From NCBI GenBank assembly GCA_022848865.1, contig JAJISE010000005.1:2930-66929 (forward strand): a stretch of DNA of 64,000 nucleotides, given 5' to 3'. Position 1 is the stretch's first letter, and each line of letters begins with the position of its first letter. The position numbers were made by a program, and so were the translations under genes. The DNA comes from Thermoplasmatota archaeon (GTDB lineage Archaea > Thermoplasmatota > Thermoplasmata > RBG-16-68-12 > JAGMCJ01). The notes beneath the pieces were generated by a model. The model saw nothing but the letters and a program-made list of their open reading frames with translations, was not told the DNA's origin and ran no database searches. Shown one piece after another: positions 10,626-27,766 of the stretch.

Positions 10626-11336
10626 ATGCAGGAGAATGGAAGGTTCAAGAGCTATGTCCTTGGCTTTGATGACAAGCTGGACGGCGGAATCCCGGAAGGC
10701 CACATCGTTCTCGTTTGTGGAGAACCGGGCACGATGAAGTCCAGCTTGGCCTTCAGCATGCTGTACAACAACGCGCTGAAGGAGGACAGGGTCGCGGCCT
10801 ATCTCTCGCTCGAGCAGGGGAGGGACAGCCTGCTCAAGCAGATGAAGGGGATGGGGATGGACCCGCAGAACGTCGAGGACAAGCTCAGCATAGTCGACCT
10901 GAGCCTGATCAGGCGGAACCTGGAAACGCTCAAGGACCAGAGTTGGGTGGAAATCTTCAAGATGTACGCCTCCAATCTGAAGAAGAACACGGATTTCGAC
11001 CTCTTCTGCCTCGACTCGCTCTCGATCCTGGAGACGCTCGCCCGTTTCGAGTATCCCAGGGAGGAGCTCTTTCAGCTCTTCGAGTGGCTCAAGGACCTTG
11101 GTACGACGTGCCTGATCATCAGCGAGATGAACATCGGTGAGAAGCCGTTCGGCAGGTACGGGGAGGACTTCGTGGCAGACGGCATCATCCACGTGAAGAT
11201 GGAGAACGTGGACGAGGTCAACGTCCAGAGGCGCATAAGATGCGTGAAGATGAGGGGCACGAGTCACAGCCCGAACTACTACACGCTCCTTTTCGAAGAT
11301 GGCGTGTTCCAGGCGACGAGGGTCATCAGCGAATAG
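10626..11336 (+). CDS. KaiC-like / RecA-superfamily ATPase (single KaiC domain, FlaH/ArlH-like size) with a degenerate Walker A
   Basis: DGGIPEGHIVLVCGEPGTMKSSLAF. The P-loop reads GEPGTMKS, with Met in place of the conserved Gly. Walker B-like LFCLDSL. 236 aa. Confidence 0.75.
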   Translation: MQENGRFKSYVLGFDDKLDGGIPEGHIVLVCGEPGTMKSSLAFSMLYNNALKEDRVAAYLSLEQGRDSLLKQMKGMGMDPQNVEDKLSIVDLSLIRRNLETLKDQSWVEIFKMYASNLKKNTDFDLFCLDSLSILETLARFEYPREELFQLFEWLKDLGTTCLIISEMNIGEKPFGRYGEDFVADGIIHVKMENVDEVNVQRRIRCVKMRGTSHSPNYYTLLFEDGVFQATRVISE

Positions 11337-11470
11337 GCGGTCCATTTTCTTGGTGGCCAGCCAGCTTCGGAACCTTTTTATAACCTTTGCGTAATAGGTT
11401 CAACTAGCCACGGTGGTGTGGGCAGCACCATAATGAATGCCTAGGCTGATAAATGAGAGGAGGCTTCGAA

Positions 11471-14400
11471 ATGAAGTTAACGGAAGGGGAATCCTTCGCC
11501 AGGGTTTTGGCAATCGCGGTAGGACTTCTGATGGTTGTGCCGGCGACATACATCGCCGGATTTAGCACGCCTCTGGAGATGGTTACCGCGGAGACCACAT
11601 TTGTGTATTTCGGCAGCGAGAACGACCGCGACGCTCTGATGGAGTCGGGCGTTGAGATACTGGAGATCTACGACTCGTTTGCACTCGTGAGGACGACGAC
11701 CGCGCAGAACGACATGTTCCAGTCCCAAGGGATGATAGTGGACATGCCGTACGACCTGCACGCCATCCACGTGAACGGCATGATCATCGACACGCGCGTG
11801 GGGGAGTCGGAGATACCCGCCAACCTCAGGTTGGAGGCGTACAGGAGCGACGTGGACGGCCACTACCTCGTGCAGTTCCATGGACCTGTGAAGGAAGAGT
11901 GGAAGCAGGACATCGAGAGACTGGGAGGCAGGGTACTCAACTACATCCCGAATGACGCCTTCATCGTCCAGCTCGATGCGGAGCTCCTCGACGACGTGCG
12001 GTCCTTGACGGAGGTCCAGTGGCTGGGCGTGTTCCAGCCGGCGTACAAAGTCAGACCCGCCCTGTTCGAGATGAGCGGGAGGGTCTCCGTGAAGATAATC
12101 ACGTTCGCAGACGAGGGTCTTGGCCAGGTGGTAAGCTCGCTGCACAGGGACCAGATCAACTCGTACTTCGAGACCGATGACTTCGGCGTGGTCAAGGCCG
12201 AGGTCGACGTGACCGACATCCCGAGCTTCGCCAAGCTCAACTCGGTGCAATACATCGAGCCCATCTATGAGATGGAGCCGACGAACGCCAACATGCAGTG
12301 GATCATGCAGACCGACATACCAGACAACAGAAGGCTGTGGGACATGGGCCTCCACGGTGAGGGGCAGATCATAGCGGTCGCGGACACCGGGCTCGACTTC
12401 GACCACAGGTTCTTCCGCGAGGACGGTGGCACGGTCCAGACAGGTGACATCTACAACGTCACGGACCTCAACAGGAGGAAGGTCGTGAGATACCAGACCA
12501 TGAGTCACTGGATCGGCATCGACAGGATGACCGACCCGTGGGCCTGGAAGGACAGCGCGTACATGTGGGTAGCCGGGAACATCACGTCGGGCCACGGGAC
12601 CATGGTCTCGGGGACACTAACGGGGAACGATGACCCGCTTGGGGCAAGCCTGAATGACGGCATCGCCAAGGGCGCCAAGATATACTTCCAGGACATCGGG
12701 ACGCTCTACAAGAACCCGGAATGGAGCGACTGGTGGGACGACTCGCTGCGGTTCATTCCCGATGATTATCACGACCTGTTCTGGGACCCGTACAATGACA
12801 CTGCGAGGATCCACAGCAACAGCTGGGGCGCGAAGAACTCCGACTACGACCTCGAAGCCATGATGGTTGACAAGTTCATGTGGGAATACCCGGAGATGCT
12901 TGTCGTCTTCTCCACAGGTAACGATGGGCTCAACGGTCCGGGCAGCCCCGCGACAGCGAAGAACACCATTGCGGTGGGGTGGCATGGCAATTTCCCGAAC
13001 CAGGACAAGGTGGACTCCTCAAGTTCGGTCGGTCCAACAGACGATGGTAGGCGCACGCCCACGGTCATGGCTGTGGGGCAAGGCGTCTCCTCGCGGTCAA
13101 GCGGAAACAACTGGGACAACTCGAACATCGGGAACGAGCTCGGTTGGCAGGGAACGAGCTATTCCGGTCCCGTCGTCTCAGGTCTCGCCGCGATCACCCG
13201 CCAGTACTACACGGAAGGCTGGTACCCGACGGGCAACGCGGTCCCCGCGAACGGGTTCACACCCAGCGGGGCCCTTCTGAAGTCCACGATAGCCGTCGCC
13301 GGACAGCAGATGCAGGGGGCAAGGGCGGACAGGATGTTCGAGGGGACATGGCCCAACAGGGCACAGGGCTGGGGAAGAGTGGTCCTGGACAACGCACTCT
13401 ACTTCCCGGGTGATGCCAGCAGACTTCACATCGTCGACCACACTGAGGGCCTCGCGACAGGAGAGAGCGTGGAGTACACCTACTACGCCTCGAGCGGCGC
13501 AATCCCGTTCAAGGTCGCGATGGCGTACAGCGACTATCCCGGAGCGACGCCGACGACCAAGGCGCTCGTGAACAATCTGGATCTTCTTGTCACATCCCCT
13601 ACGGGGGAGACCTTCAAGGGGAACGTGTTCACCTCGGGAAACGTCTACGTCGATTACATGGAGTCCAGGCCCGACTTCGGGTCCTACGACATCGACAACC
13701 CGCTGGAGACTGTTCTCGACCTGTCCCCGAGCATCGGCTTCTGGAAGGTGAGGGTGACGGGGACGAACGTTCCCTCCGGGCCTCAGCCCTTCGCGCTGTC
13801 GATAATCGGTGCGACGGACCCGGGCTACGGACAGCTGTTCCTCGACAGGACTCTGTACGGAGACTCGGACACTATCACCATAACGGTGGAAGACGCGGAT
13901 GCGGTCGGCCCTCTGATCGTTCCGGTGTACAGCGACACGGAGACCGGCGGTGAGAATGTCACACTCCTCGAGATCGGAGCAGGTGTGTTCGAGGGGGCGA
14001 TCAATACCGCCTTCGGCACACCAACCGCCGACGGAGCCCTCCAGGTGAGCGAGGACGACACGGTCACGGTCGAGTACGCGGACACGACGGTCCCAATTAG
14101 GACCCTCCAGCAGACGGCGCTCATAGACGGCGCACCTCCGATGATAACGGGCGTGAAGGCGACGAGGATAACCAACGCGGCCGCCACGATAGTGTGGAAC
14201 ACGGACGAGTCGGCGACCTCGACGGTCTTCTACGACACCAGCCCTGTGTCTCTGACTAATACTGCGGTCAAGACGCCTGCTGGTCTCTTCGTCTCCCATT
14301 CCATTGATGTTATCGGCCTGCAGACAGGCTTGAGGTACTACTTCGACGTCGAGTCGACGGACAGATTCGGACACACGACTCTGGATGATAACCAGGGACA

Positions 14401-16612
14401 GCACTACAGCTTCGTTACGACCGAGAAGGCGGAGCTTCTCCTCGTCATCGGCGACGACACGTTCCCGCCGGAGAGTGTCGATAGGTACAAGAACGCGTTC
14501 GAGAGCTTCGGGTGGTCCTACAACGAGTGGTATGTGGACAGAAGCGGCGTTCCGACGCTAATGCTGCTCCAGGGATACAAGGTCGTGCTCTGGCAGACCG
14601 GCCTGGAGGAGTATCCACCGTTCGAGCCTGAGGAAAGGGTCCTGATAACGAACTACATAGACGAGGGAGGACGGTTCTTCGTCTCCTCGCACGACGTCGC
14701 ATGGGCGCTTGCCAAGGACTCCGGTTCCGAATACGCGTCAGTAGAGTCCGGACAGTGGGTCAATTCCACACTGAAGGCGGACTGGGACATAGACCCCAGC
14801 CTCTGGACGGCCAACGAGGGGTCCATCGGAGACCCGATCAGCAATGAGTACGTTGGATTCAACCGGGTAAATTACGAGCCCCACAGGTCAGGTGGTTCTG
14901 GGGATGAGGTTAAGGCTCAGAGCTACGGTGGATCCGCCTCGACCGTCTGGATGAACTACGGGATCGATGCTTCCCCGGGGGATATCGGGCTCAAGTGGGT
15001 CTCCTCGGCTGCGAACGGGACCGCGGGGCCTGGGAAGGTCTGGGGAGGTCAACCATCTAAGCTGGCCTTGTACTTCTTCGAGGTCTCCCGAATCAACTTC
15101 GCGGACGTGAACGACCTGGACAGAGGCTCGATAATCAACAAGACGGTCGTGTGGCTGATTGGCCACGACCATCCAGATGTCCAGGTGATCTCTCCCAACG
15201 GCGGAGAGGTCTTCGTCGGGAACACCGTACAGATCGACTGGAGCCGCCAGGTGTACTCGTCAGGCGTAAACAGCCAGGCGCTCTTCTACAGCCCGGACGA
15301 CGGTCAGTCATGGGTGAGGATAACGCCCGACCCGCTGCCGGGAGACACGACCTACAACTGGAACGTGATCGGCCTGCAGAACGGGATACACTACCGCGTG
15401 AAGGTCGTTGTCGAGGACGACGGCGTCCCCTACCCGATGCTCAACGGCACGGACATATCGGACGACACGTTCACGATCCTGAAGCCCGGGGGAGACAATG
15501 TTGGCCCCATAACCGTCCCGGGAAGCATAAACGCAGTCCCGAACCCGGGCGAGAGGTACACGAGCATCGCATTCACGGCGACCGTCGACGATACGAACTA
15601 CGGGAACTCGATGATACAGGCCGTGGAGTTCTACATGGACGCTCCTGGACCCGACGGCGGAGGAACGCCGATGAGCCCTGTGGACATCTTCGACACCGCC
15701 CTGGAGCAGGCCACTTGGACCGGCTCGGCGGACTGGCCGCCCGGAGTGCACTGCATCTTCATCCACGGGCAGGACGCCGCGAACAACTGGGGCGAGTGGG
15801 AGTCCAGGTGCTTCACCATGCTCGGCAAGGTAGTGCAGGCCGCATCCAACTTCATGGCGGGAATCACTGGATTCGCCTACGCGGATGTGACCCTCGCATG
15901 GACATTGTCACCTGACGACCCGCTTGACGTGACCAACTATGCCATCTACTACGGAACGAGCTATGACCCGACGGCTACAAGCTACTCGTTCCTCGCCAGC
16001 GTCCCGAACCAGACGGGAATGTACGTTCACGCAGGAGCTGGTTCGGCCATCAGCAATTACTACTACGCGATATACTCCAACAGCTCGGGCGGCGATTCCA
16101 CCATGGCCTCGCAGCAGGCGGCGAAGTACTGGATACTTCTTATTGGGGGCGTGAACTTCATCTCGGTGCCGATCACGCCATCCGACCCGTTCCCGGCAAC
16201 GGTGTTCAAGATGATGGACACCGACTTCAGGGTCTGGACCTACGACCCGCTGGCGGGCGGTTGGGACAGTTTCAATTCGGTCAAGCCCTACGGCGGAGGA
16301 TTGTCCACGATTATGCCTGGCAAGGGCTACTGGTTGGACGTTCCCGCAGCGGACGATCTCCACGTCGCTGGATACGTGCAGACCCAGGTCTCGATCGAGC
16401 TGATCTCGCCCTGGACGCTTGTCGGATACCCATCGCTCACGGGCTCGATGACGGTCGGTGACCTGAAGGCGACGACCGGGGCGACGAAGGTCGAGGGATA
16501 CTCGGCGGCAGCGCCCTACCACCTGCAGGAGCTTGCGGACGTGTACGTCCTTGCACCCGGAGAGGCCTACTGGGTCGGCGGCGCCGACTACATCTGGCTG
16601 GTCTACATCTGA
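11471..16612 (+). CDS. Giant secreted subtilisin-like serine protease (peptidase S8), 1713 aa. Domain order: N-terminal hydrophobic signal or anchor, propeptide-like region, S8 catalytic domain, beta-sandwich, Fn3-like domain, an insert of about 520 aa, and a conserved C-terminal module.
   Basis: Catalytic Asp in DTGLDFDH, His in HGTMVSGT, Asn in NDGLNGPGSPATAKN, Ser in GTSYSGPVVSG. GGAGG lies 9 nt before the ATG at 11471 (the track ORF starts at 11453). TTTTTATAA promoter at about 11379. Confidence 0.85.
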   Translation: MKLTEGESFARVLAIAVGLLMVVPATYIAGFSTPLEMVTAETTFVYFGSENDRDALMESGVEILEIYDSFALVRTTTAQNDMFQSQGMIVDMPYDLHAIHVNGMIIDTRVGESEIPANLRLEAYRSDVDGHYLVQFHGPVKEEWKQDIERLGGRVLNYIPNDAFIVQLDAELLDDVRSLTEVQWLGVFQPAYKVRPALFEMSGRVSVKIITFADEGLGQVVSSLHRDQINSYFETDDFGVVKAEVDVTDIPSFAKLNSVQYIEPIYEMEPTNANMQWIMQTDIPDNRRLWDMGLHGEGQIIAVADTGLDFDHRFFREDGGTVQTGDIYNVTDLNRRKVVRYQTMSHWIGIDRMTDPWAWKDSAYMWVAGNITSGHGTMVSGTLTGNDDPLGASLNDGIAKGAKIYFQDIGTLYKNPEWSDWWDDSLRFIPDDYHDLFWDPYNDTARIHSNSWGAKNSDYDLEAMMVDKFMWEYPEMLVVFSTGNDGLNGPGSPATAKNTIAVGWHGNFPNQDKVDSSSSVGPTDDGRRTPTVMAVGQGVSSRSSGNNWDNSNIGNELGWQGTSYSGPVVSGLAAITRQYYTEGWYPTGNAVPANGFTPSGALLKSTIAVAGQQMQGARADRMFEGTWPNRAQGWGRVVLDNALYFPGDASRLHIVDHTEGLATGESVEYTYYASSGAIPFKVAMAYSDYPGATPTTKALVNNLDLLVTSPTGETFKGNVFTSGNVYVDYMESRPDFGSYDIDNPLETVLDLSPSIGFWKVRVTGTNVPSGPQPFALSIIGATDPGYGQLFLDRTLYGDSDTITITVEDADAVGPLIVPVYSDTETGGENVTLLEIGAGVFEGAINTAFGTPTADGALQVSEDDTVTVEYADTTVPIRTLQQTALIDGAPPMITGVKATRITNAAATIVWNTDESATSTVFYDTSPVSLTNTAVKTPAGLFVSHSIDVIGLQTGLRYYFDVESTDRFGHTTLDDNQGQHYSFVTTEKAELLLVIGDDTFPPESVDRYKNAFESFGWSYNEWYVDRSGVPTLMLLQGYKVVLWQTGLEEYPPFEPEERVLITNYIDEGGRFFVSSHDVAWALAKDSGSEYASVESGQWVNSTLKADWDIDPSLWTANEGSIGDPISNEYVGFNRVNYEPHRSGGSGDEVKAQSYGGSASTVWMNYGIDASPGDIGLKWVSSAANGTAGPGKVWGGQPSKLALYFFEVSRINFADVNDLDRGSIINKTVVWLIGHDHPDVQVISPNGGEVFVGNTVQIDWSRQVYSSGVNSQALFYSPDDGQSWVRITPDPLPGDTTYNWNVIGLQNGIHYRVKVVVEDDGVPYPMLNGTDISDDTFTILKPGGDNVGPITVPGSINAVPNPGERYTSIAFTATVDDTNYGNSMIQAVEFYMDAPGPDGGGTPMSPVDIFDTALEQATWTGSADWPPGVHCIFIHGQDAANNWGEWESRCFTMLGKVVQAASNFMAGITGFAYADVTLAWTLSPDDPLDVTNYAIYYGTSYDPTATSYSFLASVPNQTGMYVHAGAGSAISNYYYAIYSNSSGGDSTMASQQAAKYWILLIGGVNFISVPITPSDPFPATVFKMMDTDFRVWTYDPLAGGWDSFNSVKPYGGGLSTIMPGKGYWLDVPAADDLHVAGYVQTQVSIELISPWTLVGYPSLTGSMTVGDLKATTGATKVEGYSAAAPYHLQELADVYVLAPGEAYWVGGADYIWLVYI

Positions 16613-16655
16613 GCAGGCTCATATAGGCGGCTTGACTAAAGCAAAGTGAACCCCC

Positions 16656-19600
16656 ATGACGAGCAGAAGCGTCATCGCAGTAATGCTATCCCTCGCGTTC
16701 ATCCTGACAATCGGTCCAGTTGACCTCGCCTCGACGAAAGGAGAGGTGTACGACGCGCGGGTGGGCGATCCGCACTACCTCGGAATCTATGGATTCGCTT
16801 TCGATACCAGGAACGGGGAGCCGCTGATTCCCGCCGCTCTGAGAGTGACAGACTATCCCACTGGAGGCGATGGTTACTACATCGTGCAGTTCAGCGGTCC
16901 CGTCACGGAGGAGTACAAGGAGTCGCTGACGCGAGCGGGCGGGGAGATCGTGAACTACGTTCCTTCGAATGCTTTCCTCGTGAGGATGGCCCCCGGACTG
17001 CGCACGAACCTGGAGAAGGTCCAGGCAGTCCAGTGGACGGGCGTCTTCCAGCCCGCGTACAAGATAGTGCCCGAGCTCACGTTCGAGGCGGGGATAGTCG
17101 AGGCCCAGATCATCACGTTCAATCCGGATGGCGTCAACGCCGTTCTCGAGCTGCTCCCGGAGCGCAGGGTCATCTACACGTACGAGGGCAAGGACTTCGG
17201 CAGAGTGGACGCCCGCGTGACCTACGAGCAGGTCGTCGAAATCGCCCGCCTCGCCGACGTCAACTTCATACAGCCGCGAGAGGTTCCGGAGGTCCAGAAC
17301 AGGCGGATGCAGTGGATAATGCAGACGAACGTCCAAAACGACAGGCGCATCTGGGACATGGGGATATCAGGCGAGGGACAGCTCGTCGGGTTCTCCGACA
17401 CGGGGATAGATTTCGACCACAACTTCTTCCGCGAGAACGCGACGACGATACAGAAGGGCGACATCTATAACGTCACGGACACGACCCGAAGGAAGCTCGT
17501 GCGGTACTGGGTGCACGGCGGCGCAAACCAGGAGTGGGCATGGAAGGACAGCCCCAACCGCTGGGACCCCGGCGCTGGATGGGCGACCATAGGACACGGG
17601 ACCATGGTGACGGGGACGTTCGGCGGCAATGACGATTCGATCGGCTCGAGCACCAATGACGGAGGCGCCAAAGGCGCCAAGGTGTTCTTCCAGGACATAG
17701 GAGACGTGCAGCAATGGGGAGGATACTGGCGGGATGCCTTGGCCTGGGTACCCTCTGACTACGACAATCTCTTCGGTCCCGCCTACAACGCGGGCGCGAG
17801 GGTGCACTCAGGTTCCTGGGGCTCCTCCACGACCGCCTACACGCAGGGCGCGCAGATGCTGGACGAATTCATGTGGAACAATCCTGATATGCTGATCATA
17901 TTCTCGAACGGGAACGGAGGCGGGGGCTGGTACGACGTCGTTAGCCCCGCCACTGCCAAGAACGTGCTGTCATCGGGATCGAGCGCGACGTCTCCGAACC
18001 AGAACAGCGTCGCCGACTACAGCAGCCCCGGACCGACCTCCGACGGTAGGAGAAAGCCCACCGTCATTGCGGTCGGAGAAGGCACCTCATCCATGTCTAC
18101 GGGGAACCCGAGGGACGATACGAACACGGCCTGGGAGGCGGGCTGGGGCGGAACGAGCTACTCGGCACCCGACCACGCATCGCTCGCGGCCATGACCCGC
18201 CAGTACTTCATGGAGGGTTGGTGGCCGACTGGGACGAAGAACCCCGCGGATGGTTTCGAGCCCTCCGCAGCATTGGTGAAGGGCGTGCTGGCGGCAAGCG
18301 CCCAGCAGATGACCGGCTCGTACACGGACAGGGAGAACGAGAACACCTGGCCCAACAACGCACAAGGCTGGGGGCGGGTCCTCCTGGACGACGCACTCTG
18401 CTTCGCCGGGGACACGAGGCGCATGGAGATCGTTGACGACACGTCCAGCCTGAGCACGGGAGAATCAAGGATCGAGTCCTACTACGTTCTCGATTCCGCA
18501 GAGCCGCTGAGGGTGATGCTCACGTGGACCGATTATCCCGGGGTCGCGTGGACCACACCGAACATCGTGAACGACCTCGACCTTCTTGTGACGGACCCGC
18601 TCGGAACCACGTACAAGGGCAATGTCATGGGGACCTTCGCTCAGGGAGAGTCGCAACCCGACACAGGCAGCTACGACAGGCTGAACGTGCAGGAGGGCGT
18701 CCACATCAAGAGCCCCATGGTGGGCGCGTGGACGATAGAAGTGATAGGGTACAACGTCCCGAGCGGCCCGCAGCCCTACGCCCTGGTGGCGCTCGGCGAC
18801 CTCGGCACGGGCTGGGGGCAGGTGTACCTGGACCGGAGCGTCTACGGGGACAGCGACACGATAGGGATAACTGTCCGGGACACGGGACCGACGGCCGTGA
18901 ACGTGACCATCTGGAGCACGACGGAACCCACTCCCGAGACGGTCTCGCTGAACGAGTCCGCGCCCGGCTCAGGGAGATGGACGGGGACGATCAACACTAC
19001 TACCGGTGCGCCAACGACTGACGGAGAGTTGCAGGTCTCGGAGGGCGATCTGGTGACCGTTCAGTACGACGACATGAACCCGATACACACTTCCACGGAC
19101 ACGGCGACGATAGACGCCTCGGCCCCGCTGATATTCAACCTCATGGTAACCAACATCACGTCCACGACCGCGAACGTCATATGGAGGACGAACGAGCCCG
19201 CGGACTCGAGAGTGTACTACAACACGAGCGACCCGCTCGACGCGGAGGAATACATGAGCGGGTACCGCATCCAGCACGACGTGCTACTGACGGGACTGCA
19301 GCCCGAGACGACGTACATGTTCGACGTGGAGTCCTCGGACCCGTACGATCACACGACCACTGACACGAATGGAGGGCTGCACTACAACTTCACGACGCTG
19401 AAGCTCTCGCCCGAGCCCCCGACGAACCTCAGAGCATGGCTGTTCGGACCCAACTACATCCATGTCCATATCGAGTGGGACCTCTCGGCAGACGACGCGA
19501 CGATGATCGACCACTACACGGTGTACTTCAACACAGGCGCATACGATCCAGACGGGACGGGATACCAGTTCCTGGCGACGGTCCTGCAGGGCTTCAACTT

Positions 19601-20189
19601 CTACAACCACTACAACATGGGGCACCTGAACTGGATGAACATCTTCTACTACGTGGAGGCGAACTACAGCGCTGGACTTCCGGCCAGGACCGAGGACCAG
19701 GCGGCCAAGTTCACAAGATGGACGCCACCGGGCAACGTGCTTCTTTCCTTCCCGCTCAAGATGGTCAACGAGACCATAGAGTACGCGCTGCAGACGGTCA
19801 GCTGGGACATGGCGAGGTTCTACGATCCGTGGACGGAGGAGTGGAGGGAGAACCACATCTGGAAGAGCTGGAACGACCTTCTGACGGTGAACCAGTCCAT
19901 GGCGATCTGGGTCAATGTGACTTCGGCCGAGCCTGTGACGAGCGCGGGGGTCGTGCCCAAGAGCGCGGAGATCTTCCTGAAGGAAGGGTGGAACCTGGTC
20001 GGGTTCCCGCACCTGTACTGGGACTACACAGCTGGCGATCTGATGGCGCAGACCGGGGCCGAGAAGGCGGAGAGCTTCAACGCCGTCGCACCGCCGTACT
20101 ACCTGTACCGCCTCACTGGACCGATGTACATGGCCCCGGGCGAAGGATACTGGATAAAGGTCCCCGCCGACACCATGTGGATGCTGTAG
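16656..20189 (+). CDS. Secreted subtilisin-like serine protease (peptidase S8), 1177 aa. It is a paralog of the upstream gene with the same domain order but lacks the 520-aa insert.
   Basis: Sec-type signal MTSRSVIAVMLSLAFILTIGPVDLA. DTGIDFDH, HGTMVTGT and GTSYSAPDH catalytic motifs. Fn3-like domain. C-terminal module homologous to protease 1 (GWNLVGFP...APGEGYW). Own TATA (catatagg) about 26 nt upstream. Confidence 0.85.
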   Translation: MTSRSVIAVMLSLAFILTIGPVDLASTKGEVYDARVGDPHYLGIYGFAFDTRNGEPLIPAALRVTDYPTGGDGYYIVQFSGPVTEEYKESLTRAGGEIVNYVPSNAFLVRMAPGLRTNLEKVQAVQWTGVFQPAYKIVPELTFEAGIVEAQIITFNPDGVNAVLELLPERRVIYTYEGKDFGRVDARVTYEQVVEIARLADVNFIQPREVPEVQNRRMQWIMQTNVQNDRRIWDMGISGEGQLVGFSDTGIDFDHNFFRENATTIQKGDIYNVTDTTRRKLVRYWVHGGANQEWAWKDSPNRWDPGAGWATIGHGTMVTGTFGGNDDSIGSSTNDGGAKGAKVFFQDIGDVQQWGGYWRDALAWVPSDYDNLFGPAYNAGARVHSGSWGSSTTAYTQGAQMLDEFMWNNPDMLIIFSNGNGGGGWYDVVSPATAKNVLSSGSSATSPNQNSVADYSSPGPTSDGRRKPTVIAVGEGTSSMSTGNPRDDTNTAWEAGWGGTSYSAPDHASLAAMTRQYFMEGWWPTGTKNPADGFEPSAALVKGVLAASAQQMTGSYTDRENENTWPNNAQGWGRVLLDDALCFAGDTRRMEIVDDTSSLSTGESRIESYYVLDSAEPLRVMLTWTDYPGVAWTTPNIVNDLDLLVTDPLGTTYKGNVMGTFAQGESQPDTGSYDRLNVQEGVHIKSPMVGAWTIEVIGYNVPSGPQPYALVALGDLGTGWGQVYLDRSVYGDSDTIGITVRDTGPTAVNVTIWSTTEPTPETVSLNESAPGSGRWTGTINTTTGAPTTDGELQVSEGDLVTVQYDDMNPIHTSTDTATIDASAPLIFNLMVTNITSTTANVIWRTNEPADSRVYYNTSDPLDAEEYMSGYRIQHDVLLTGLQPETTYMFDVESSDPYDHTTTDTNGGLHYNFTTLKLSPEPPTNLRAWLFGPNYIHVHIEWDLSADDATMIDHYTVYFNTGAYDPDGTGYQFLATVLQGFNFYNHYNMGHLNWMNIFYYVEANYSAGLPARTEDQAAKFTRWTPPGNVLLSFPLKMVNETIEYALQTVSWDMARFYDPWTEEWRENHIWKSWNDLLTVNQSMAIWVNVTSAEPVTSAGVVPKSAEIFLKEGWNLVGFPHLYWDYTAGDLMAQTGAEKAESFNAVAPPYYLYRLTGPMYMAPGEGYWIKVPADTMWML

Positions 20190-20216: not shown

Positions 20217-22055
20217 TCAGAGGACGCCAAAGAAGTACGAAGCGCACAGGAACGAGAGCGAGTACAGTGGTATCGACACGATGAGCCCCTTCCCGATTCT
20301 TGAGAGAGTCGTGGTGATGTCGCCTCCCTGAAGGCCTTCCGTGAAGTAGCTCGCCACCGCCAGGTTGCAACACAGGAGAGCTCCCAGGATCAGCACGAGA
20401 GCGGACGGTGTCATCCCTCCGGAGCCCGAGAAGTGAGCTTCCATGAGCAGGGACATCGAGGCCGTGACCCCGAGCACCAGGGGCGAGAAGAACGTGAGGG
20501 TGCTGTTCACCGTCTGGACTATCGGGCTCATCTCGTCCCTTGCATCTGCCTCGATCCTCGAGGTGTCCCTGAGGTCGGATGCGATCAGCTTGGCCACCGT
20601 TCCCGCCAGAATCCCGTCCTTCTGCGTGATGTCCACGACCGCCTTGAGATTCGATCCCAGAATGGGTTCATCCCGAATCACGCTTTCGCATGTCAGCGTC
20701 TCCCCGGCCGTGGTCGTGCCCCTCGACATGAGGAAGATGTCCCTGGTGATCCTCCCCGCCAGTTCCGTCCCTTCCATCCGTTCCGCGGTCTTCAGAAGCG
20801 CCTCCTCCAGGGGCTTTTCCGCCAGAAGGAAGTCGCCAAGAGACTCGAGCCCCTCCGAGACATCCTCGCGGGATACTTGCGGCATCGTGCCTTTCATCAT
20901 CCTGCCCGTGAAGAGCATTGCGAGAGCTATCATCGAGGATGCGGACACAAGAACCACGAGGGACGAGACCGGCGTGGGCTCGAGAAGCCAGGCAGTCGCC
21001 ACACCCAGGACGATCGTGATGGATGCGGCAGCAAGGAGGGCGGACATACCACGGAGGCCGAGCTGGAGACGGCCAGGGGAGGAGAACGGCCGCCTGGACA
21101 GAACCTCCCTGCAGTACAGGAGCATGCCCAATGGGAAGACTATGTCGAGAATCACTGCAATCGCGGCGGGGCTGAGAGCGCTTTCCCCGCTCATTCCTTC
21201 GCCAGCAATGCCCACGGGAGCCGCGACGGTGAGCGAGGACATGGGCAGCAGCGAGGCGATCATGACGGGAAGCACGATACCCAGAGCGAAGACAACGTTT
21301 ATCGGCGCTTTGAGGGATGCGAGATATCCTTTGAGCTTCCTTCTCGTGTGCAGGTGGACAGGGGACATCAGGGAGCCGAGGTTGTCCCTGCGGCCCAGTC
21401 TCACGGCATCCGAGAACCGCCGTAGAGCCTCCTCGAGACCATCGTTTCTTCCCCTCCATTTCCGCACGTACTCGCCGAAATCCTCTGGGAGACTTCTTCC
21501 CTTCATGTGAACGTTCCAGATCATCCGCTGGAAGCCACCCTTCAGCATCCCCCTGGAGTTCTTCGCGGAGGAAAGGACCGCGTTCTCATAGGTCAGCGCC
21601 CCTCCCGCGCCGCCGATCAGATAGCTCATCACCTCTGGAGCCTCCCTGAGGGACGATTTCTCGATCCTCGCGGCGAGCGTTGCCGGATACGACAGGAACG
21701 TTCTCTGGAGAAGCAATGGGAGGATGAGAGCGAGAACGATGTAGATGGAGTGCGGGTGAAGCACCGCGAGGACCGGGACCGCCAGAAGAGAGCAGAGGAG
21801 GACCAGTCGTCCACCGGAGACCACCTCTCCAGGCCTCAGCCCTAGCCCCACGAAGGCGATGTCGTCCTCGATCGATCTCATGTCATAATCCAGCATCGAC
21901 TTCAGCTTCGAAAGGGCCGGGACAAGCCGCTTCTTGGCGCCTGACCGAGCCGTCCGGGCCGGGGCCGGGCTTGGCTTCGTCCTGCACCGCAGAGGTCCGA
22001 GCGTGCGGTGTGCAAGCCTGCAGAGCCTCGTGAATGCTACCCCGGGCCTAGACAT
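20217..22055 (-). CDS. Type IV pilus / archaellum assembly platform protein (TadC/FlaJ/GspF-like polytopic membrane protein)
   Basis: 612 aa. Two internally repeated halves, each with a cytoplasmic helical domain and TM helices. 8-nt overlap with the upstream ATPase gene. Confidence 0.75.
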   Translation of the reverse strand: MSRPGVAFTRLCRLAHRTLGPLRCRTKPSPAPARTARSGAKKRLVPALSKLKSMLDYDMRSIEDDIAFVGLGLRPGEVVSGGRLVLLCSLLAVPVLAVLHPHSIYIVLALILPLLLQRTFLSYPATLAARIEKSSLREAPEVMSYLIGGAGGALTYENAVLSSAKNSRGMLKGGFQRMIWNVHMKGRSLPEDFGEYVRKWRGRNDGLEEALRRFSDAVRLGRRDNLGSLMSPVHLHTRRKLKGYLASLKAPINVVFALGIVLPVMIASLLPMSSLTVAAPVGIAGEGMSGESALSPAAIAVILDIVFPLGMLLYCREVLSRRPFSSPGRLQLGLRGMSALLAAASITIVLGVATAWLLEPTPVSSLVVLVSASSMIALAMLFTGRMMKGTMPQVSREDVSEGLESLGDFLLAEKPLEEALLKTAERMEGTELAGRITRDIFLMSRGTTTAGETLTCESVIRDEPILGSNLKAVVDITQKDGILAGTVAKLIASDLRDTSRIEADARDEMSPIVQTVNSTLTFFSPLVLGVTASMSLLMEAHFSGSGGMTPSALVLILGALLCCNLAVASYFTEGLQGGDITTTLSRIGKGLIVSIPLYSLSFLCASYFFGVL

Positions 22056-23817
22056 ACACGGCCCTCACATCCATCCATTCCTTCCACTGCGCAACCAGGT
22101 CGCTGCCGGAGTAGCCCTCCTCGATGAGGGATGAGAAGACCGAGTTCGCCAGTGAGACGAGCTTCGCGGAGAGCAGCTTCGTCCCCAGCCTGCGGGCGAG
22201 CTCGACGACGTGGAGCTTACACTCAGCCCTAGCGTGGATGTTAGCAAGAGCTTCACCGTAGCTCATCCCCCAGGAGTTCGCAATCTCTCGAATCTTGTTG
22301 GAACCTTGAAGGAAGACATCGGTCTCGACAAGAGAGTCCTGCGAGATGCTGAACCTCATCAGGGGGAGGAACCTGCCATCATAGGATTCCTTGCAGAGCT
22401 CGGAGATCTCGATCACCCTGCGTCTGGAGTTCTGCGTTCCCCTCGGCCGGAACAGTCCCGCGACGATGACGATATCAGTGGCCGAGAAGGACTGCGGAGG
22501 AATGCCCAGGTCGTGGACAACTCGCTCGAACACGCTCCTGGATGAGCTTCCGTGGATCGTTCCGAGGACTGCCGAGCCCGCGGTTCCCACCCGCATCGCC
22601 TCGTAGAGCGTCTTGGCTTCCTCCCCCCTGACCTCCCCGAGGACCAGGGCCGATTCGCCCAAGCGGAGAGAGACCCTTAGCGCCTTCTCCGCTGTCATCC
22701 GGTTCGACGACTGCCCGGAACCGACATACAGGCCCTGGATCTTGTACCCGAGGCGGCGGAGCTCCGCGCACGGGAGCTCCAGTGTGTCCTCGATCGTGAG
22801 AACGCGCTGGCTGGTCGGGAACTCGAACATCATCGCTCCCAAGAGGGAGGACTTCCCCGCCCCGCGACTGCCCGTGACGAGTATCGTGGCATTCCCGTCG
22901 ATGAGGAACGAGATGAGACCGGCGGCTAGCGGCGTCAGACTCCTGTGATAGACCAACTTCGTGAGCGTCCAGGGGTCCGTGGAGTGCCTGCGAACGGCGA
23001 GGGCTATCCCGTCTGGGCTGAGCGGTGGTGCGACGGCCGTCAACCTGGCGTTCATGTCACCGAGGTCCGTCTCAAGGATCGGGCTCCTCTCCGAGAACGG
23101 CTTCCCGCTCATGATGAGGAGCTTGGAGATGATGTTACGCAGGCCCGTTTCGCACATGAGGATGTTCGACCTGCATCTCTGATGCGATCTTCCTCCCCCG
23201 GCGTCGGCAACCGTGAGATGGAGCGGCACCTTTTCGCAGGGTGCGTCGAGAAAGATGTCCTGAACGTTGGAATCGGCAAGGAGGATCTCGAGGATTCCCA
23301 GCCCGGCGGTGTTCCTCTCCAGAAGGACCGCCAGAAAGCGAGACCGACGCAATCGCTCGGCCTTCCCCAGGGTTCTGGGCAGATGGAGCGCGATCAGGTG
23401 TTCCGCCCGATTCCTGATGTAGCGTCTCACCTGGGCGGCGTTGCCGAGATCGAGATTCGAGGGCAGGACGGACCAGATCTCATCCACGACGTTCCAGAGG
23501 ATCGAGAGCTCATCCTCGGGTACTTCGAATGAGGGCGGAGAGAGCCAGTAGAGGAAATCGGGGGAATTCTCCAGACGGAAGATCTGGATGCGAGACTCTT
23601 CGACGGCATAGCTGCTGGTCACCTCGAGATGCTCAGGAGGGTCGCCGAGGACCCAGAAGGAGACGAAGAAGGGCTTCCACTTCTGGTCCCTGGCAAGGAG
23701 CCGGCCGATTGACCGTTGGATGGCACTTGTGTCTATCCTTCTGATCCTGAGAGCCGCGTGGGCGTAGGGGTCTCGCAGCGCGGTGGAGGTTCTCGAAGTC
23801 CTTTCGGCCGAGGTCAC
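22048..23817 (-). CDS. Type IV filament assembly ATPase (FlaI/TadA/GspE/VirB11 superfamily)
   Basis: Walker A VTGSRGAGKSSLLGAM. GEVRGEEA box typical of FlaI/TadA. 589 aa with an N-terminal domain. Confidence 0.85.
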   Translation of the reverse strand: MTSAERTSRTSTALRDPYAHAALRIRRIDTSAIQRSIGRLLARDQKWKPFFVSFWVLGDPPEHLEVTSSYAVEESRIQIFRLENSPDFLYWLSPPSFEVPEDELSILWNVVDEIWSVLPSNLDLGNAAQVRRYIRNRAEHLIALHLPRTLGKAERLRRSRFLAVLLERNTAGLGILEILLADSNVQDIFLDAPCEKVPLHLTVADAGGGRSHQRCRSNILMCETGLRNIISKLLIMSGKPFSERSPILETDLGDMNARLTAVAPPLSPDGIALAVRRHSTDPWTLTKLVYHRSLTPLAAGLISFLIDGNATILVTGSRGAGKSSLLGAMMFEFPTSQRVLTIEDTLELPCAELRRLGYKIQGLYVGSGQSSNRMTAEKALRVSLRLGESALVLGEVRGEEAKTLYEAMRVGTAGSAVLGTIHGSSSRSVFERVVHDLGIPPQSFSATDIVIVAGLFRPRGTQNSRRRVIEISELCKESYDGRFLPLMRFSISQDSLVETDVFLQGSNKIREIANSWGMSYGEALANIHARAECKLHVVELARRLGTKLLSAKLVSLANSVFSSLIEEGYSGSDLVAQWKEWMDVRAVYV

Positions 23818-24173
23818 CCCTCCACGATTCCAAGGCCTACCCTGAGAGCGAACCGTCTGAGGAGCATCGCCTCGTCAAGGATGATGAGGGCATCCGTCTT
23901 CGTCTGGAAAAGGCACAATTCGCACCTGGGTCCGCCATCCTCCTTAGCGATCTCAAGCATCTTCCTCAGCGTCGAGAAGAAATCGGTGAGCCCGCTAAGG
24001 AACGCGGCCTCCAATTCGACAAACAGCCTCCTCGGGTCCAGCTGACATCCGCGGCATTGCTTCAACTCCTTCTTCGGCCGGCAGCGCTGGTTCAGCTCCG
24101 CCCTGATCGCTGAGAGGGCGTCCAACAGGCTCCTCATCCTGGACAGGAGCTCCACGCTCAGCGTCGTGTACAT
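23814..24173 (-). CDS. Small zinc-ribbon protein, hypothetical. This is the conservative trimming of a 345-aa track ORF.
   Basis: CRPKKELKQCRGC ... CELC (Cx9CxxC ... CxxC). 4-nt overlap with the ATPase start. A longer version would run through the pilin promoter and gene on the opposite strand. Confidence 0.3.
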   Translation of the reverse strand: MYTTLSVELLSRMRSLLDALSAIRAELNQRCRPKKELKQCRGCQLDPRRLFVELEAAFLSGLTDFFSTLRKMLEIAKEDGGPRCELCLFQTKTDALIILDEAMLLRRFALRVGLGIVEG

Positions 24174-24335
24174 CTTCACAATGGTTCCGGAGAGAACCAC
24201 TCTCTCGATCCTCAGCCTGGAGTCGAAGGCCAATAACGAACCTGTGAAGCACCTCTGCTTCCTCAGATCGGGCCGGGCGTCGCATCCCGTGCAGTCGATC
24301 TCGAGAAGGTTCCTCTCTTTTGAATACTCCGCCCT

Positions 24336-24373
24336 GCATATGTCCAGGCCGACATCCCTCCGAACGCATATGC
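24336..24373 (+). promoter_or_regulatory. Two copies of the palindrome GCATATG(C), 30 nt apart, upstream of the pilin-like gene. Candidate regulator binding sites.
   Basis: ctGCATATGtcc at 24336-42 and cGCATATGCaac at 24366-73. They are followed by a TATA-like gatattta at 24407-14, then the ATG at 24438. Confidence 0.35.
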
Positions 24374-24437
24374 AACTTCCGTGAGGGTTAAAAACCTTCT
24401 TGGCAAGATATTTACCCAGTCCCCCGTTAGTAATAGC

Positions 24438-24887
24438 ATGTGGAGGGACGAGAGAGCAATTTCGCACATTCTGGAGGAGCTCGTGGCACTGGTGGTAATC
24501 CTCACGGCGCTGGGCCTGCTCCTGGTGAGCCTGCAGGGGAGATACGTGAACGAGATCGACACGCTGAAGGCACTGGAAATGAAGGAGGATGCAAGGGGTC
24601 TCCTTGAGAAGATCGTTTCCCACCCTCGGCTGACCAAGGACGGGGAATACCTCCTGCTGGACCAATGCTCTCTGATCAACGTGTCCGTTGAGCGGTTGGG
24701 AGAGATCCTCCAGACGCCGTACGAGTTCCGATTGGCGATATATGACGTGACGAACTCGACGGGCAGGTCCTTCCAGACTTCCGCGCCGTTCGGGAATGTC
24801 ATCGGATCGACGACTAGCTGCAACGTCTGGATCCGACAGGGGGAGGTCCACGCCGCTCGGGTGTCGATCCTCATTTGGAGAGGGTGA
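24438..24887 (+). CDS. Putative type IV pilin-like protein (class III signal-peptide-like N-terminus)
   Basis: MWRDERA|ISHILEELVALVVILTALGLLLV. The short polar N-region ends in R-A, followed by a hydrophobic helix of about 22 aa with acidic residues at +5/+6. TATA about 28 nt upstream. Confidence 0.45.
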   Translation: MWRDERAISHILEELVALVVILTALGLLLVSLQGRYVNEIDTLKALEMKEDARGLLEKIVSHPRLTKDGEYLLLDQCSLINVSVERLGEILQTPYEFRLAIYDVTNSTGRSFQTSAPFGNVIGSTTSCNVWIRQGEVHAARVSILIWRG

Positions 24888-24888
24888 G

Positions 24889-25407
24889 ATGAACAGTACG
24901 GGTCAGCTGGCCGTCACGGATGCGCTTATCTTCCTGCTGATCGCGAGCCTGATCGTGTCCTTCTCGCTGATGGGCATGTCCGGGCATCTGGAGATCTCGG
25001 AAATCCACTCCGCGGCGGACATGAAGGACTACGCGGAGGACACGTTCATCGTCCTGATGCGCAGCACGCTAGACCTGGAACGTTGCGGGGCGAACCACAC
25101 GCAGGCGGTCGACAGATACATCCTGCTCAGGACCAGCTCGCAAGACAGTGGGGAGTCGACGGAGCCACTGATTGAATGCAATCTGCTCGTGCACGAACTC
25201 GCGAGGAATCTGATACTGGAAAGGTACTGCTTCCTCCTCTCTTCCAGCTACATCAACGAATCCTCGGGAGGGCTCACGAAGATCGTGTTCGCCCCGGAAG
25301 AGAGTGACCCGCCGAGCGAGCACTTCCGGCTGAGCTGGGCCTACCCGATGATTGGTTTCGGGAAGTCAGGCGAAGCTATCGTCAGTCTTGATCTCTGGCG
25401 AAGGTAG
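24889..25407 (+). CDS. Putative type IV pilin-like protein, second of the tandem pair
   Basis: MNSTG|QLAVTDALIFLLIASLIVSFSL. The start is 1 nt after the stop of the previous gene (the track ORF is trimmed to this Met). Confidence 0.45.
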   Translation: MNSTGQLAVTDALIFLLIASLIVSFSLMGMSGHLEISEIHSAADMKDYAEDTFIVLMRSTLDLERCGANHTQAVDRYILLRTSSQDSGESTEPLIECNLLVHELARNLILERYCFLLSSSYINESSGGLTKIVFAPEESDPPSEHFRLSWAYPMIGFGKSGEAIVSLDLWRR

Positions 25408-25549
25408 CGGGGAAACCGGCAGGCCTCATGAACGATCCCGGGATCCAGATGGAACTCTGCATGATAGGCACGGGCGCCTTCGGTCGTTACGGGCGCACCT
25501 CGGCAACATTATTACTCCGGTATGCATGTGGTTCCTCAGAGGAGAAACC

Positions 25550-26509
25550 ATGCCAACAAGGGTAGGATTCCAATTTGGGGAAGGGTCGATGGGCAAGCGG
25601 CTATTCGGTAGGAAGGATGGAGGAGTGTCGATGGGCAAGCTCATCATCACTGGCTTGATTGTCGTAGTCTTCGTCTTCTTGCTCGTGGGAGGCTTTGTGA
25701 ACGTTCCCGCTGGTCACAAGGGCGTCATCGTGGCCGCGCCGGCAGGACCGGACGAGGTCGAGATAAGCGAGGGATGGCACTGGAACCCGTACTATGCCCT
25801 GTCCAGCATCGAGATCATCCGCTACAACACGCAGACCAGGGACATGAGCGCGTCACAGGGAAGCACGCTGACAGTGAGATCATCCGACAACCTGGACATA
25901 CGAATGGACGTCTCTCTCATCTGGAGGATGGAGCCCGACAAGGTCGCCGACGTCAGGATCGAGAGAGGTGACATTCTCGACCTCGTCGACAGGTACCTCA
26001 GGACCGTGCCCAGGAACGTGGCGAGCAACTACACGGGAGAGTACATCGGCGGAGAGGGAAGGATGGTCGTCGAGGAAGAGACGCGAGTGGTGATCAAGCA
26101 GGAGCTGGATGCATACGACGTGGTCGTGGAGGACTTCCTGATAAGATCGATAGACCTTCCCACGACGCTCGACGTGGCCATCGAGGAGAAGAAAGCGGCG
26201 GAGCAGAAGGTGATCACGGCAGAGTTCAACAGGAACGTCACCATCATAAACGCGGACGCGGAGAGGCTACAGGCCATTCTCGAGGCGGAAGGCATCAGGA
26301 ACGCGACGATAATAATGGCGAACGGAACCGCCGAGGCCGTGAGGATGGTCATGGAACAGCTGCAGATCTCGGACCCCAGTCTGGCCAATGTGACCGAGGC
26401 CTACCTTACGCTCCTCTACATCCAGGCGCTGACGAACCCGGACAGCAACATCCAGTACATCATAATCACGGACGGCGGGACCCCGATAATCATCCAGCCG
26501 CGGCCTTAG
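25550..26509 (+). CDS. SPFH/band-7 (stomatin/HflK/C-like) membrane protein
   Basis: N-terminal TM helix, then PAGHKGVIV... SPFH domain and a C-terminal coiled region. gaggag lies 5 nt before the ATG at 25550. Confidence 0.8.
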   Translation: MPTRVGFQFGEGSMGKRLFGRKDGGVSMGKLIITGLIVVVFVFLLVGGFVNVPAGHKGVIVAAPAGPDEVEISEGWHWNPYYALSSIEIIRYNTQTRDMSASQGSTLTVRSSDNLDIRMDVSLIWRMEPDKVADVRIERGDILDLVDRYLRTVPRNVASNYTGEYIGGEGRMVVEEETRVVIKQELDAYDVVVEDFLIRSIDLPTTLDVAIEEKKAAEQKVITAEFNRNVTIINADAERLQAILEAEGIRNATIIMANGTAEAVRMVMEQLQISDPSLANVTEAYLTLLYIQALTNPDSNIQYIIITDGGTPIIIQPRP

Positions 26510-26537
26510 GCGGGCACGGGCGGACCTGCGCAGAGCG

Positions 26538-27050
26538 CTACGTATACCAGTCCTCGCCTCCAACCTTGCTGCTTGAGGCTCTCCATAGGATGACGAGTTC
26601 GTAGTGGCTTCCTGGCTTGCACGTAATCGTGAAGAAATCACCGACGGACAGGCTATACCCACCGTCCACGTCGGTGAAGGACAGGGGAGGGGGCGTCCCT
26701 TCATCTAGCGGGGCGATTCTGTCCAACCAAGTGCCGTTCTCCAGGAGTATCGCCTCGAAGTCATCCAGAAGCTCAAAGGACGAGACCCCTGCAACGGCCA
26801 CGCTCCATTGATTACCGGCCGATAGTTCCGGGACGTCCAGTATTACGACTGGCTCATATGATCCGTCATAACCAATCAATCCGCTGACCATGACGTACAG
26901 GACGGCACTCATGACAACGGACGCGATGATGAAAACCGCCACGACCACAACGATGATTGTCAGGGCCGTCTTGTCATCACGCTTCTGGGGCACCCACGGT
27001 CCAGGGTAAGGGTAGGTCTGCAAGGCGCACAGAATCGTTCGTATCGACAT
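26538..27050 (-). CDS. Single-pass membrane protein with a beta-rich ectodomain of about 110 aa, paralog A. Candidate minor pilin or filament-associated protein.
   Basis: PQKRDDKTA-LTIIVVVVAVFIIASVVMSAVLYV TM segment. TATA (cttatatt) and GGAGG lie upstream of the ATG at 27050. Homologous to the next gene (F[TI]D.DG...D.F..TC....Y...L). Confidence 0.5.
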   Translation of the reverse strand: MSIRTILCALQTYPYPGPWVPQKRDDKTALTIIVVVVAVFIIASVVMSAVLYVMVSGLIGYDGSYEPVVILDVPELSAGNQWSVAVAGVSSFELLDDFEAILLENGTWLDRIAPLDEGTPPPLSFTDVDGGYSLSVGDFFTITCKPGSHYELVILWRASSSKVGGEDWYT

Positions 27051-27157
27051 CCCTCCGAACCTCCGTAGGGTCCACGCGAGTTGCAGAATATAAGTGTTTA
27101 CCTTCAGGCGCGTCCAGCATCTTCACAGGTGAAAGAAGCTCGGGCGGACGTCATGGC

Positions 27158-27628
27158 CTACGTCTGCCACTCCACGGAGTCCAGTATCTCCATGTCGGTC
27201 CGATGGACGAGCGTGAAGGAATAGCCGCTCTTGGATTCGCAGGTCAGCCTGAAGTAGTCATCGGACGACAGACGCCAATCTCCATCGTGGTCGATGAACG
27301 TGATTCCGGGAGATGAGCCGGTCAACGGCTCCAGCGTGATCGTGTAGGAGTCGTCTTCGTCCAGTGTCGCCACATAGTAGTACAGGCTCCGGGTTGGATT
27401 GGCCGACTCGACCATGACCTCCCAAACGTTGCCACCGATTGCCCTGGCCTTCGAGAGCCGCGTTTCGGAAACCTCGCCCGAGCCAGGCAACAGGATATAG
27501 AAGTAGAACATGGCCGCTGAGACCATGATAACGATGACAATGAGGATGCCGACGATCCCCGATGCGGACGCACGGGCTCCAGTCGAGTTAGGGACTCTAC
27601 GGCATGCTTGTCCGGTCAACCGCGTCAA
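27158..27628 (-). CDS. Single-pass membrane protein, paralog B. The start is uncertain: it is either the TTG at about 27628 or the ATG at 27526.
   Basis: GIVGILIVIVIMVSAAMFYFYILLPG TM segment. The C-terminal domain is homologous to paralog A. The N-terminal 95 aa of the track ORF look like noncoding GC-rich translation. Confidence 0.4.
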   Translation of the reverse strand: MTRLTGQACRRVPNSTGARASASGIVGILIVIVIMVSAAMFYFYILLPGSGEVSETRLSKARAIGGNVWEVMVESANPTRSLYYYVATLDEDDSYTITLEPLTGSSPGITFIDHDGDWRLSSDDYFRLTCESKSGYSFTLVHRTDMEILDSVEWQT

Positions 27629-27766
27629 TCGCAAAAGTATCCCTCTTAACTTCGATATGAGAGTCGACTTGTGGCAATATAACAGTTCTCTTCTAAATAT
27701 CACATTCACACACCTCCCGCTCGAAGCCTTATACGCTCCGCCCGCGTCGTCAGGTGCAGTGATAGC

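Follow-up and report, generated by a model that had tools for sequence, protein, structure and literature searches.

The genome of an uncultured Thermoplasmatota archaeon (NCBI GenBank assembly GCA_022848865.1, contig JAJISE010000005.1) carries two giant secreted subtilases whose genes run convergently against those of a type IV filament assembly machine, and this arrangement raises the question of whether the machine serves to export or display the proteases. The stretch that was analysed, here called the window, comprises 64,000 nucleotides (positions 2,930 to 66,929 of the forward strand), and the locus in question lies at 10.6–27.6 kb within it. The original prediction, made from the tight linkage of the genes, was that they may form a dedicated export or surface-anchoring route resembling the bacterial type II secretion system (T2SS), and an adhesion pilus co-localised with proteases was given as the alternative. 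It is this alternative that found the better support. The locus is rather likely to consist of an adhesion-type type IV pilus beside two subtilases that are independently exported by Sec, are probably retained at the surface, and have been kept together with the pilus genes by vertical synteny. Large secreted proteins encoded near archaeal type IV pilus loci have already been recorded and were read as adhesins or S-layer proteins (PMC4858521), and Thermoplasmatales produce adhesive type IV pili (PMC12448462).

The first evidence came from the N-termini of the two proteases, here designated subtilase A and subtilase B. In all orthologs these are of the Sec type: the n-region is basic, the hydrophobic core measures about 15 residues, and after a proline come small residues at the cleavage site (for example …GPVDLAS/TKGE, the slash marking cleavage here and below), and no conserved [KR][GA] was found directly before the hydrophobic core across the subtilase orthologs. 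A regular-expression match to a class III signal in subtilase A (EG/ESFAR…) was rejected, being not conserved in orthologs and having a charged residue at +1 and an arginine at +5. Because the signal peptides are of the Sec and not of the class III type, display by a machine of the Sulfolobus bindosome type fails as a model, and it was rejected also on the low score of the ATPase against the BasE model, given below.

The second line of evidence is the arrangement of the transcription units. All genes of the locus were found by open reading frame (ORF) listing, translation and Pfam and NCBIfam scans, and every gene named in the original prediction is present and correctly placed. In order along the window they are:

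9780..10364, minus strand, 194-aa protein, family unknown (gene call; divergent to KaiC; no Pfam match)
10626..11336, plus strand, single-domain KaiC-like ATPase (Pfam KaiC, 9.5e-42; T-run after the stop codon)
11471..16612, plus strand, subtilase A, 1713 aa (Pfam Peptidase_S8, 9.5e-30; identical public gene call)
16118..16609, plus strand, C-terminal 163-aa domain (CTD) of subtilase A (CTD profile)
16656..20189, plus strand, subtilase B, 1177 aa (Pfam Peptidase_S8, 1.3e-28; paralog of A)
19701..20186, plus strand, C-terminal 163-aa domain (CTD) of subtilase B
20217..22055, minus strand, platform, a diverged polytopic TadC/FlaJ protein (T2SSF family), 612 aa (T2SSF via homologs)
22048..23817, minus strand, secretion ATPase of the TadA/CpaF/FlaI family, 589 aa (Pfam T2SSE, 9.6e-18; NCBIfam TIGR03819, 3.7e-36)
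23814..24233, minus strand, Cys-rich accessory protein, 139 aa as called (three CxxC motifs; no HMM match)
24438..24887, plus strand, prepilin-like protein 1, 149 aa (N-terminal motif, context)
24889..25407, plus strand, prepilin-like protein 2, 172 aa (N-terminal motif; no Pfam match)
25352..26509, plus strand, SPFH/Band-7 membrane protein, start codon uncertain (Band_7, 7.5e-22)
26538..27050, minus strand, single-pass membrane protein TM1, 170 aa (Pro-rich cytoplasmic N-terminus, signal anchor, beta-rich ectodomain)
about 27158..27619, minus strand, TM2, paralog of TM1, about 153 aa, probable TTG start (class-III-like N-terminus; no Pfam match)

The stop codons of the convergent subtilase B and platform genes are 27 nt apart, and the platform and ATPase genes overlap by 8 nt. 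Upstream of subtilase A stands a TATA box of its own (TTTATAA at 11377), GGAGG lies just before its ATG at 11471, and T-runs follow the stop codons of KaiC and of subtilase B. These signals argue for separate transcription of KaiC, the subtilases and the pilus operon. Four units are predicted. KaiC forms one and subtilase A, probably together with B, the second; the third, which runs towards the subtilases, holds the Cys-rich, ATPase and platform genes, and the pilin-like pair makes up the fourth, read away from the ATPase operon.

Conservation of the neighbourhood was assessed in both directions. Alignment of the ATPase against one genome per species gave 358 related loci, 80 of which were kept, and the forward count covers those 56 species-level loci in which the sequence reaches 5 kb or more past the platform gene. 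An S8 catalytic domain occurs beyond the platform in 8 of these and in none of the other 48; for proteins with the CTD the corresponding figures are 12 and 44. For the reverse scan 80 metagenomic loci were fetched with the CTD profile, whose closer alignment set biases the sample to subtilase-B-like domains, and a platform or ATPase gene was nearby in six of them, leaving 74 without. Those six are of the S8A type where the gene is complete (loci L088 and L112 are cut by contig ends), and in two cases KaiC and the 194-aa gene stand ahead of them. Loci L142 and L143 display the order 194-aa gene, KaiC, full-length subtilase A ortholog, FmdE-like gene, 369-aa membrane protein and MCM, with neither ATPase nor platform. 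A subtilase A ortholog is usually, not always, found beside the module, and the module is usually found without a subtilase.

In a neighbour-joining tree of the ATPase, the loci with a linked subtilase are confined to two basal clades next to each other, which fits a single origin followed by vertical descent. The genes of the block diverge in parallel (KaiC 56–61%, ATPase 48–49%, S8 40–46%, MCM 57–66%). The housekeeping gene for MCM, a protein functionally unrelated to secretion, is also syntenic with the module, in L014, L018 and L020 and in the clade of L038, L043 and L079, over a range that is the same as or wider than that of the subtilase linkage; adjacency in this block therefore does not imply shared function.

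Two further features of the block were recorded. L020 and L142 share a conserved membrane protein of some 370 aa that has a soluble C-terminal domain and matches no Pfam family. In L020 its gene lies between platform and contig end (13664–14788, minus strand), in L142 between subtilase and MCM (7281–8390, plus strand); the gene may have belonged to the ancestral block and been lost from the window lineage. The MCM ORF of L143 (6445–10224) is 1259 aa long versus 696 aa in the window, which suggests an intein or other insertion.

The subtilases themselves are 48% identical over 936 aligned residues (about 930 aa), and their fn3-like plus C-terminal modules are 32% identical. Subtilase A comprises, in order, the Sec-type signal peptide, a propeptide-like region, the S8 domain, a KP-43-like beta domain, fn3-like domains, an insert of about 460 aa, and a last fn3-like domain with the CTD; subtilase B has the Sec-type signal peptide, S8 domain, fn3-like domains and CTD, without the insert. 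Motifs DTG, HGT, GN and GTS are present in both, and each is predicted to have the Asp-His-Ser triad and oxyanion Asn of peptidase family S8. The nearest solved structures to subtilase B are KP-43 (1wmd) and SubHal (5fax), matched at about 4e-47 over some 400 residues that cover the catalytic domain and the following beta-barrel domain. The insert of subtilase A (window 14444–15830, residues ~992–1453) occurs also in distant orthologs, is not found in B, and matched no Pfam family.

The CTD has a distribution of its own. A word-index search for homologs gave only 4 matches, and a full HMMER scan of 1.84 billion representatives was used instead; it found the domain in 11,523 of these cluster representatives at E<=1e-3 and in 5,084 at E<=1e-10, nearly always as the outermost C-terminal part of a large secreted protein. 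Characteristic motifs are G-x-N-L-[IV]-S-x-P, GWNL[VI]G[FY]P and G-x-GYW[VI], and an fn3-like domain usually precedes it. The bearers are varied, NosD/beta-helix proteins accounting for 27 of 55, with CARDB, BNR, Ig, PQQ, VWA and S8 proteins among the others; the domain was also found in L038, L042, L043, L079, L035 and the metagenome loci L087–L166. No Pfam model and no fold relative in the PDB were found for it. Given the number of representatives, the terminal position and the variety of bearers, the CTD is regarded as a general terminal module of large secreted proteins, most plausibly for attachment to the envelope, and is put forward as a possible new domain for the anchoring or sorting of proteins in Thermoplasmatota secretomes. 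As a marker of much of the large-protein secretome in Thermoplasmatota, it is the more useful by-product of this analysis. Five internal matches to the CTD profile were noted in P0126 (NCBI MCF7912336.1), a 3424-aa 'PKD domain-containing protein' labelled Candidatus Cloacimonadota; either the domain is also bacterial or the contig was mis-binned.

A number of observations weigh against the reading of the locus as a pilus beside independently exported proteases. In the two neighbouring ATPase clades, at ATPase identities down to about 48%, the subtilase abuts the platform in 13 of 14 assessable loci, the lone exception being L020, where a 374-aa membrane protein and not the subtilase faces the platform. 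NosD/beta-helix proteins with the CTD occupy the convergent position after the platform in the clade of L038, L042 and L079, an unrelated S8 protein and a NosD protein, both with the CTD, are encoded upstream of the ATPase in L035, and in a neighbour-joining tree some clustering is seen among the CTDs of proteins encoded beside the platform. Such recurrence of CTD proteins near the module could reflect selection for co-localisation. Moreover, the type of the subtilase signal peptides was assigned by eye, without a trained predictor. As regards the linkage as such, the original prediction was right that it is real: it extends beyond one genome, to every assessable close relative and to a second clade at about 48% ATPase identity.

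CTD proteins stand beside the module in at least three lineages, with differing cargo domains; a rough expectation suggests that this is compatible with chance if a genome encodes some 10–25 such proteins. Other lineages have large Ig-like surface proteins near the module or, in L067, a C11 clostripain. The latter (16161–18323, plus strand), a secreted C11-family peptidase, carries a CARDB domain as well as a membrane anchor at its C-terminus; its gene, on the strand of the pilus operon and 2.3 kb downstream of the platform, belongs to a distant lineage and is missing from the sister locus L017.

An adapted form of the original prediction is a pilus-assisted route, in which a short pseudopilus pushes Sec-exported, already folded CTD proteins through an outer layer of the envelope or positions them in it, and it is judged very unlikely. 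The pseudopilus would be built by the ATPase–platform machine from the two prepilin-like proteins, as in the bacterial T2SS or in secretion by the type IV pili of Clostridium perfringens, a construction that appears just as doubtful. Its cargo would be giant CTD-tagged exoproteins (subtilases and NosD/beta-helix proteins), with the CTD as sorting or docking signal, and the machine would be an archaeal functional analogue of the T2SS; this, too, seems improbable. If true, it would be the first protein-export role of an archaeal type IV filament beyond the bindosome. Besides the tight convergent abutment kept in one clade, the NosD proteins at the same position in another and the CTD proteins upstream of the L035 ATPase, this route has in its favour that the signal peptides are of the Sec type, like those of T2SS substrates, that both prepilin-like proteins are conserved with the machine, and that no obvious major pilin gene is present in the operon. 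A monoderm precedent is offered by C. perfringens, in which secretion of BsaC depends on type IV pili (PMC11580942), and a possible outer membrane has been discussed, on poor data, for a relative, Methanomassiliicoccus luminyensis (PMC4243693). Set against this are the separate, convergent transcription units, the many module loci with no protease or no CTD protein nearby, the CTD loci that mostly lack the module, the subtilase ortholog beside MCM without it, the five internal copies of a CTD-family domain in the Cloacimonadota-labelled protein, and the synteny of MCM, which leaves adjacency in the block with little functional information. Among all genes scanned in the locus or window there was none of the secretin, outer-membrane or GspC/L/M-type families that belong to a T2SS. 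On these grounds, together with the Sec-type signals and the TATA box and ribosome-binding site of the subtilase unit, a T2SS-like export or display route was not borne out.

A related possibility is that the enzymes are borne by the pilus, the fn3-like domain and CTD binding the filament or the TM1 and TM2 proteins, so that the subtilases would coat the filament or sit at its base and give a proteolytic adhesion organelle. The proteases are co-localised with pilin-like and single-pass membrane protein genes, the terminal position of the CTD is that of an attachment module, and the partial clustering of the CTDs of platform-adjacent proteins points the same way; however, the binding is purely hypothetical, most CTD bearers are unlinked to pilus genes, and TM1 and TM2 are conserved in the closest clade only. 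This arrangement is accordingly held to be highly improbable.

The KaiC-like ATPase and the 194-aa protein bear on another explanation, that of a co-regulated surface island in which these two control both proteases and pilus, for instance upon surface contact or starvation, and what is shared is a regulon and not a machinery. KaiC-family ATPases are recurrently linked to archaeal type IV pilus loci (PMC4858521), and, seen from the pilus genes, the KaiC unit lies beyond the proteases, the 194-aa gene and KaiC being co-conserved with subtilase A in distant relatives (L015, L016, L018, L095, L118 and L142). In L142, however, they stay with the subtilase A ortholog though the pilus module is absent (1–1383 and 1432–6765), which ties KaiC to the protease and not to the pilus; it is accordingly with the subtilase that KaiC and the 194-aa gene form a conserved unit. 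Furthermore, the 194-aa protein gave no Pfam or NCBIfam match even at E<=5 and has no recognisable DNA-binding domain. The KaiC-like protein itself is assigned to the KaiC/RecA superfamily on its predicted domain; it scored about 100 bits with archaeal KaiC models, under their equivalog cut-offs, and 50 bits versus 215 with ArlH/FlaH, of which it is thus no equivalog. Joint regulation of this kind remains unlikely.

The pilus module was analysed gene by gene. The ATPase, with the Walker A sequence GSRGAGKSS, is assigned to the PilB/VirB11 family of the type IV filament superfamily, and its nearest solved structures are CpaF (2.5e-26), A. fulgidus GspE (2oap, 1.3e-25) and FlaI (7e-18). Among NCBIfam models it matched the TadA type (3.7e-36) and FlaI (3e-25), both under the equivalog cut-offs; in bits versus cut-off the scores are 125/373 for the TadA type, 89/550 for FlaI, 57/1000 for BasE and 39/630 for GspE. 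Membership in an archaellum was rejected on the FlaI and ArlH scores and on the lack of an archaellin gene, and the original prediction of a pilus-type module rather than an archaellum holds, archaellin and FlaF/FlaG genes being absent at the locus.

Direct Pfam and NCBIfam scans of the platform protein gave no match, even at E<=5. T2SSF was matched by nine of ten platform homologs from related loci, five of them above the gathering score (best 38 bits versus a cut-off of 25.2), and the same homologs match the window platform at 1e-21 to 1e-52 (phmmer). It is for this reason described as a diverged TadC/FlaJ protein, and by transitive homology it is taken to be the polytopic GspF/TadC/FlaJ platform of the machine. 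In the 80 genome loci the gene next downstream of the ATPase encodes, with few exceptions, a platform homolog.

The Cys-rich gene is kept just upstream of the ATPase in most of these loci, and in L038, L042, L043, L045 and L046 it is fused to the ATPase N-terminus (ATPase ORFs of 769–807 aa), which supports a direct physical partnership of the two proteins. Its label as a small Zn-ribbon ORF stood in part: the Cys-rich ORF with three CxxC motifs is there, but no Pfam or NCBIfam model matched it, even at E<=5. As for the extent of the gene, no ATG, GTG or TTG is present in the window lineage upstream of the TTG at 24233 to cover the conserved Cys-rich N-terminal part with its CTGC…C motif (window 23814–24380, minus strand), and relatives at 47–59% identity have an ATG at this N-terminus (…YMKDRELLQIDCTGC); in the window the gene either uses a non-canonical start codon or has lost the first Cys motif.

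The two prepilin-like proteins share the family motif [KR]-[AG]/Q-[LVS]-A-[ILV]-[TF]-D-A followed by a hydrophobic stretch. These N-termini are class-III-like and conserved in the family; HMM searches gave no Pfam or NCBIfam match, even at E<=5. Support for the labels 'pilin-like' and 'Zn-ribbon' comes from motifs, the surrounding genes and a single AlphaFold model, and from no family model in either case. TM1 and TM2, paralogous at 3e-10, likewise matched no Pfam or NCBIfam model at E<=5 and are kept only within the closest clade, with tandem TM1 paralogs in L005 and L012. TM1 lacks a G or A at −1 and is not class-III-like, and TM2 has a class-III-like site, …GARA/SASGIVGILIVIVIMV, i.e. GARA/SASGIVG…, and is possibly a further pilin. 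The SPFH gene was rejected as a component of the module because it is limited to the closest relatives, being found at this position only at ATPase identities of about 89% or above (L003 has a different gene there), and it probably stands outside the module. A prepilin peptidase (PibD/FlaK/EppA) was not found among the window genes scanned or publicly called, about fifteen smaller predicted genes at 30–64 kb being unscanned.

The window has a G+C content of about 60% and is partly identical to contigs of two 'Thermoplasmata archaeon' metagenome-assembled genomes (GCA_044240345.1 and GCA_036478905.1). MCM follows the locus from 27959, and the remainder is housekeeping: AFOR, RLI, NAC, NMD3, fumarase, RadB, mevalonate-pathway genes, POR and topoisomerase VI B. 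Between 24000 and 28000 the pilin-like, Cys-rich, TM1 and TM2 genes have a G+C of 0.574–0.578 versus about 0.61 in their neighbours, and a third-position G+C below 0.72–0.76 versus 0.80–0.86.

Two functionally separate cell-surface systems would then lie side by side. The first would be a pilus module widespread in Thermoplasmata, with one operon for the Cys-rich protein, the TadA/FlaI-family ATPase and the diverged platform, the two prepilin-like genes divergent from it, and TM2 perhaps as an additional pilin; once matured by a prepilin peptidase whose gene would lie elsewhere, the prepilins would be built by this machine into a filament of the adhesion type. In the second, the two KP-43-like subtilases would cross Sec unfolded by means of classical cleavable signal peptides, be activated by loss of the N-terminal propeptide, and probably be held at the envelope by the fn3-like domain and CTD, a module common to thousands of other secreted Thermoplasmatota proteins. 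Their abutment would have arisen in the ancestor of one clade and been inherited vertically within a core block of the 194-aa regulator-like gene, KaiC, subtilase, pilus module and MCM. Any coupling between the systems would be physiological, the cell attaching to protein-rich particles and digesting them, and not mechanistic. If this is true, it adds a well-delimited, widely conserved but unstudied variant of the type IV pilus in Thermoplasmata, marked by its diverged platform, Cys-rich ATPase partner and two unclassified prepilin families, and a giant surface subtilase pair of interest for the way these archaea of sediments and soils degrade protein.

Both halves of the locus were compared with known systems. 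The proteases resemble KP-43 and SubHal in the catalytic domain and the next beta-barrel domain, and differ in being three to four times longer, with added fn3-like domains, the 460-aa insert in subtilase A and the novel CTD. With the T2SS the locus has in common an ATPase of the PilB/GspE superfamily, a GspF-family platform and pilin-like proteins beside Sec-dependent hydrolases; it differs in the lack of a secretin and of GspC/L/M, in having no known outer membrane to cross, in the placing of the hydrolases in separate convergent units and in the GspE score of its ATPase. The Tad/Flp pilus is nearer in that CpaF proteins are the closest solved relatives of the ATPase, the best NCBIfam model is of the TadA type and the platform belongs to the T2SSF family, yet the TadA-type score is under its cut-off, the platform is a single fused gene, and RcpA secretin, TadZ, TadD and a Flp-type pilin are missing. 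The Sulfolobus bindosome (Bas), also archaeal and type-IV-filament-like, is a machine by which non-pilin proteins reach the cell surface, but its substrates carry class III signal peptides, in contrast to the Sec-type subtilases of the window, and the BasE score is far from its cut-off. In the BsaC system of C. perfringens (PMC11580942) a pilin-dependent step likewise helps a large folded protein across a wall layer in a single-membrane cell; that system is bacterial, its barrier is peptidoglycan and the dependence was genetically shown. From archaeal adhesion pili (Aap of Sulfolobus, CdiP of Cuniculiplasma and the euryarchaeal loci of Makarova et al. 2016) the module differs in a platform without a direct Pfam match, in pilin-like proteins that fit no pilin model and in the lack of a prepilin peptidase among the window genes scanned or called. 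It shares with them the ATPase–platform pair and prepilin-like proteins of class-III-like N-terminus and, with their subclade 4F, in which a Cys-rich N-terminal domain is carried on the ATPase (PMC4858521), a Cys-rich module on or just before that protein.

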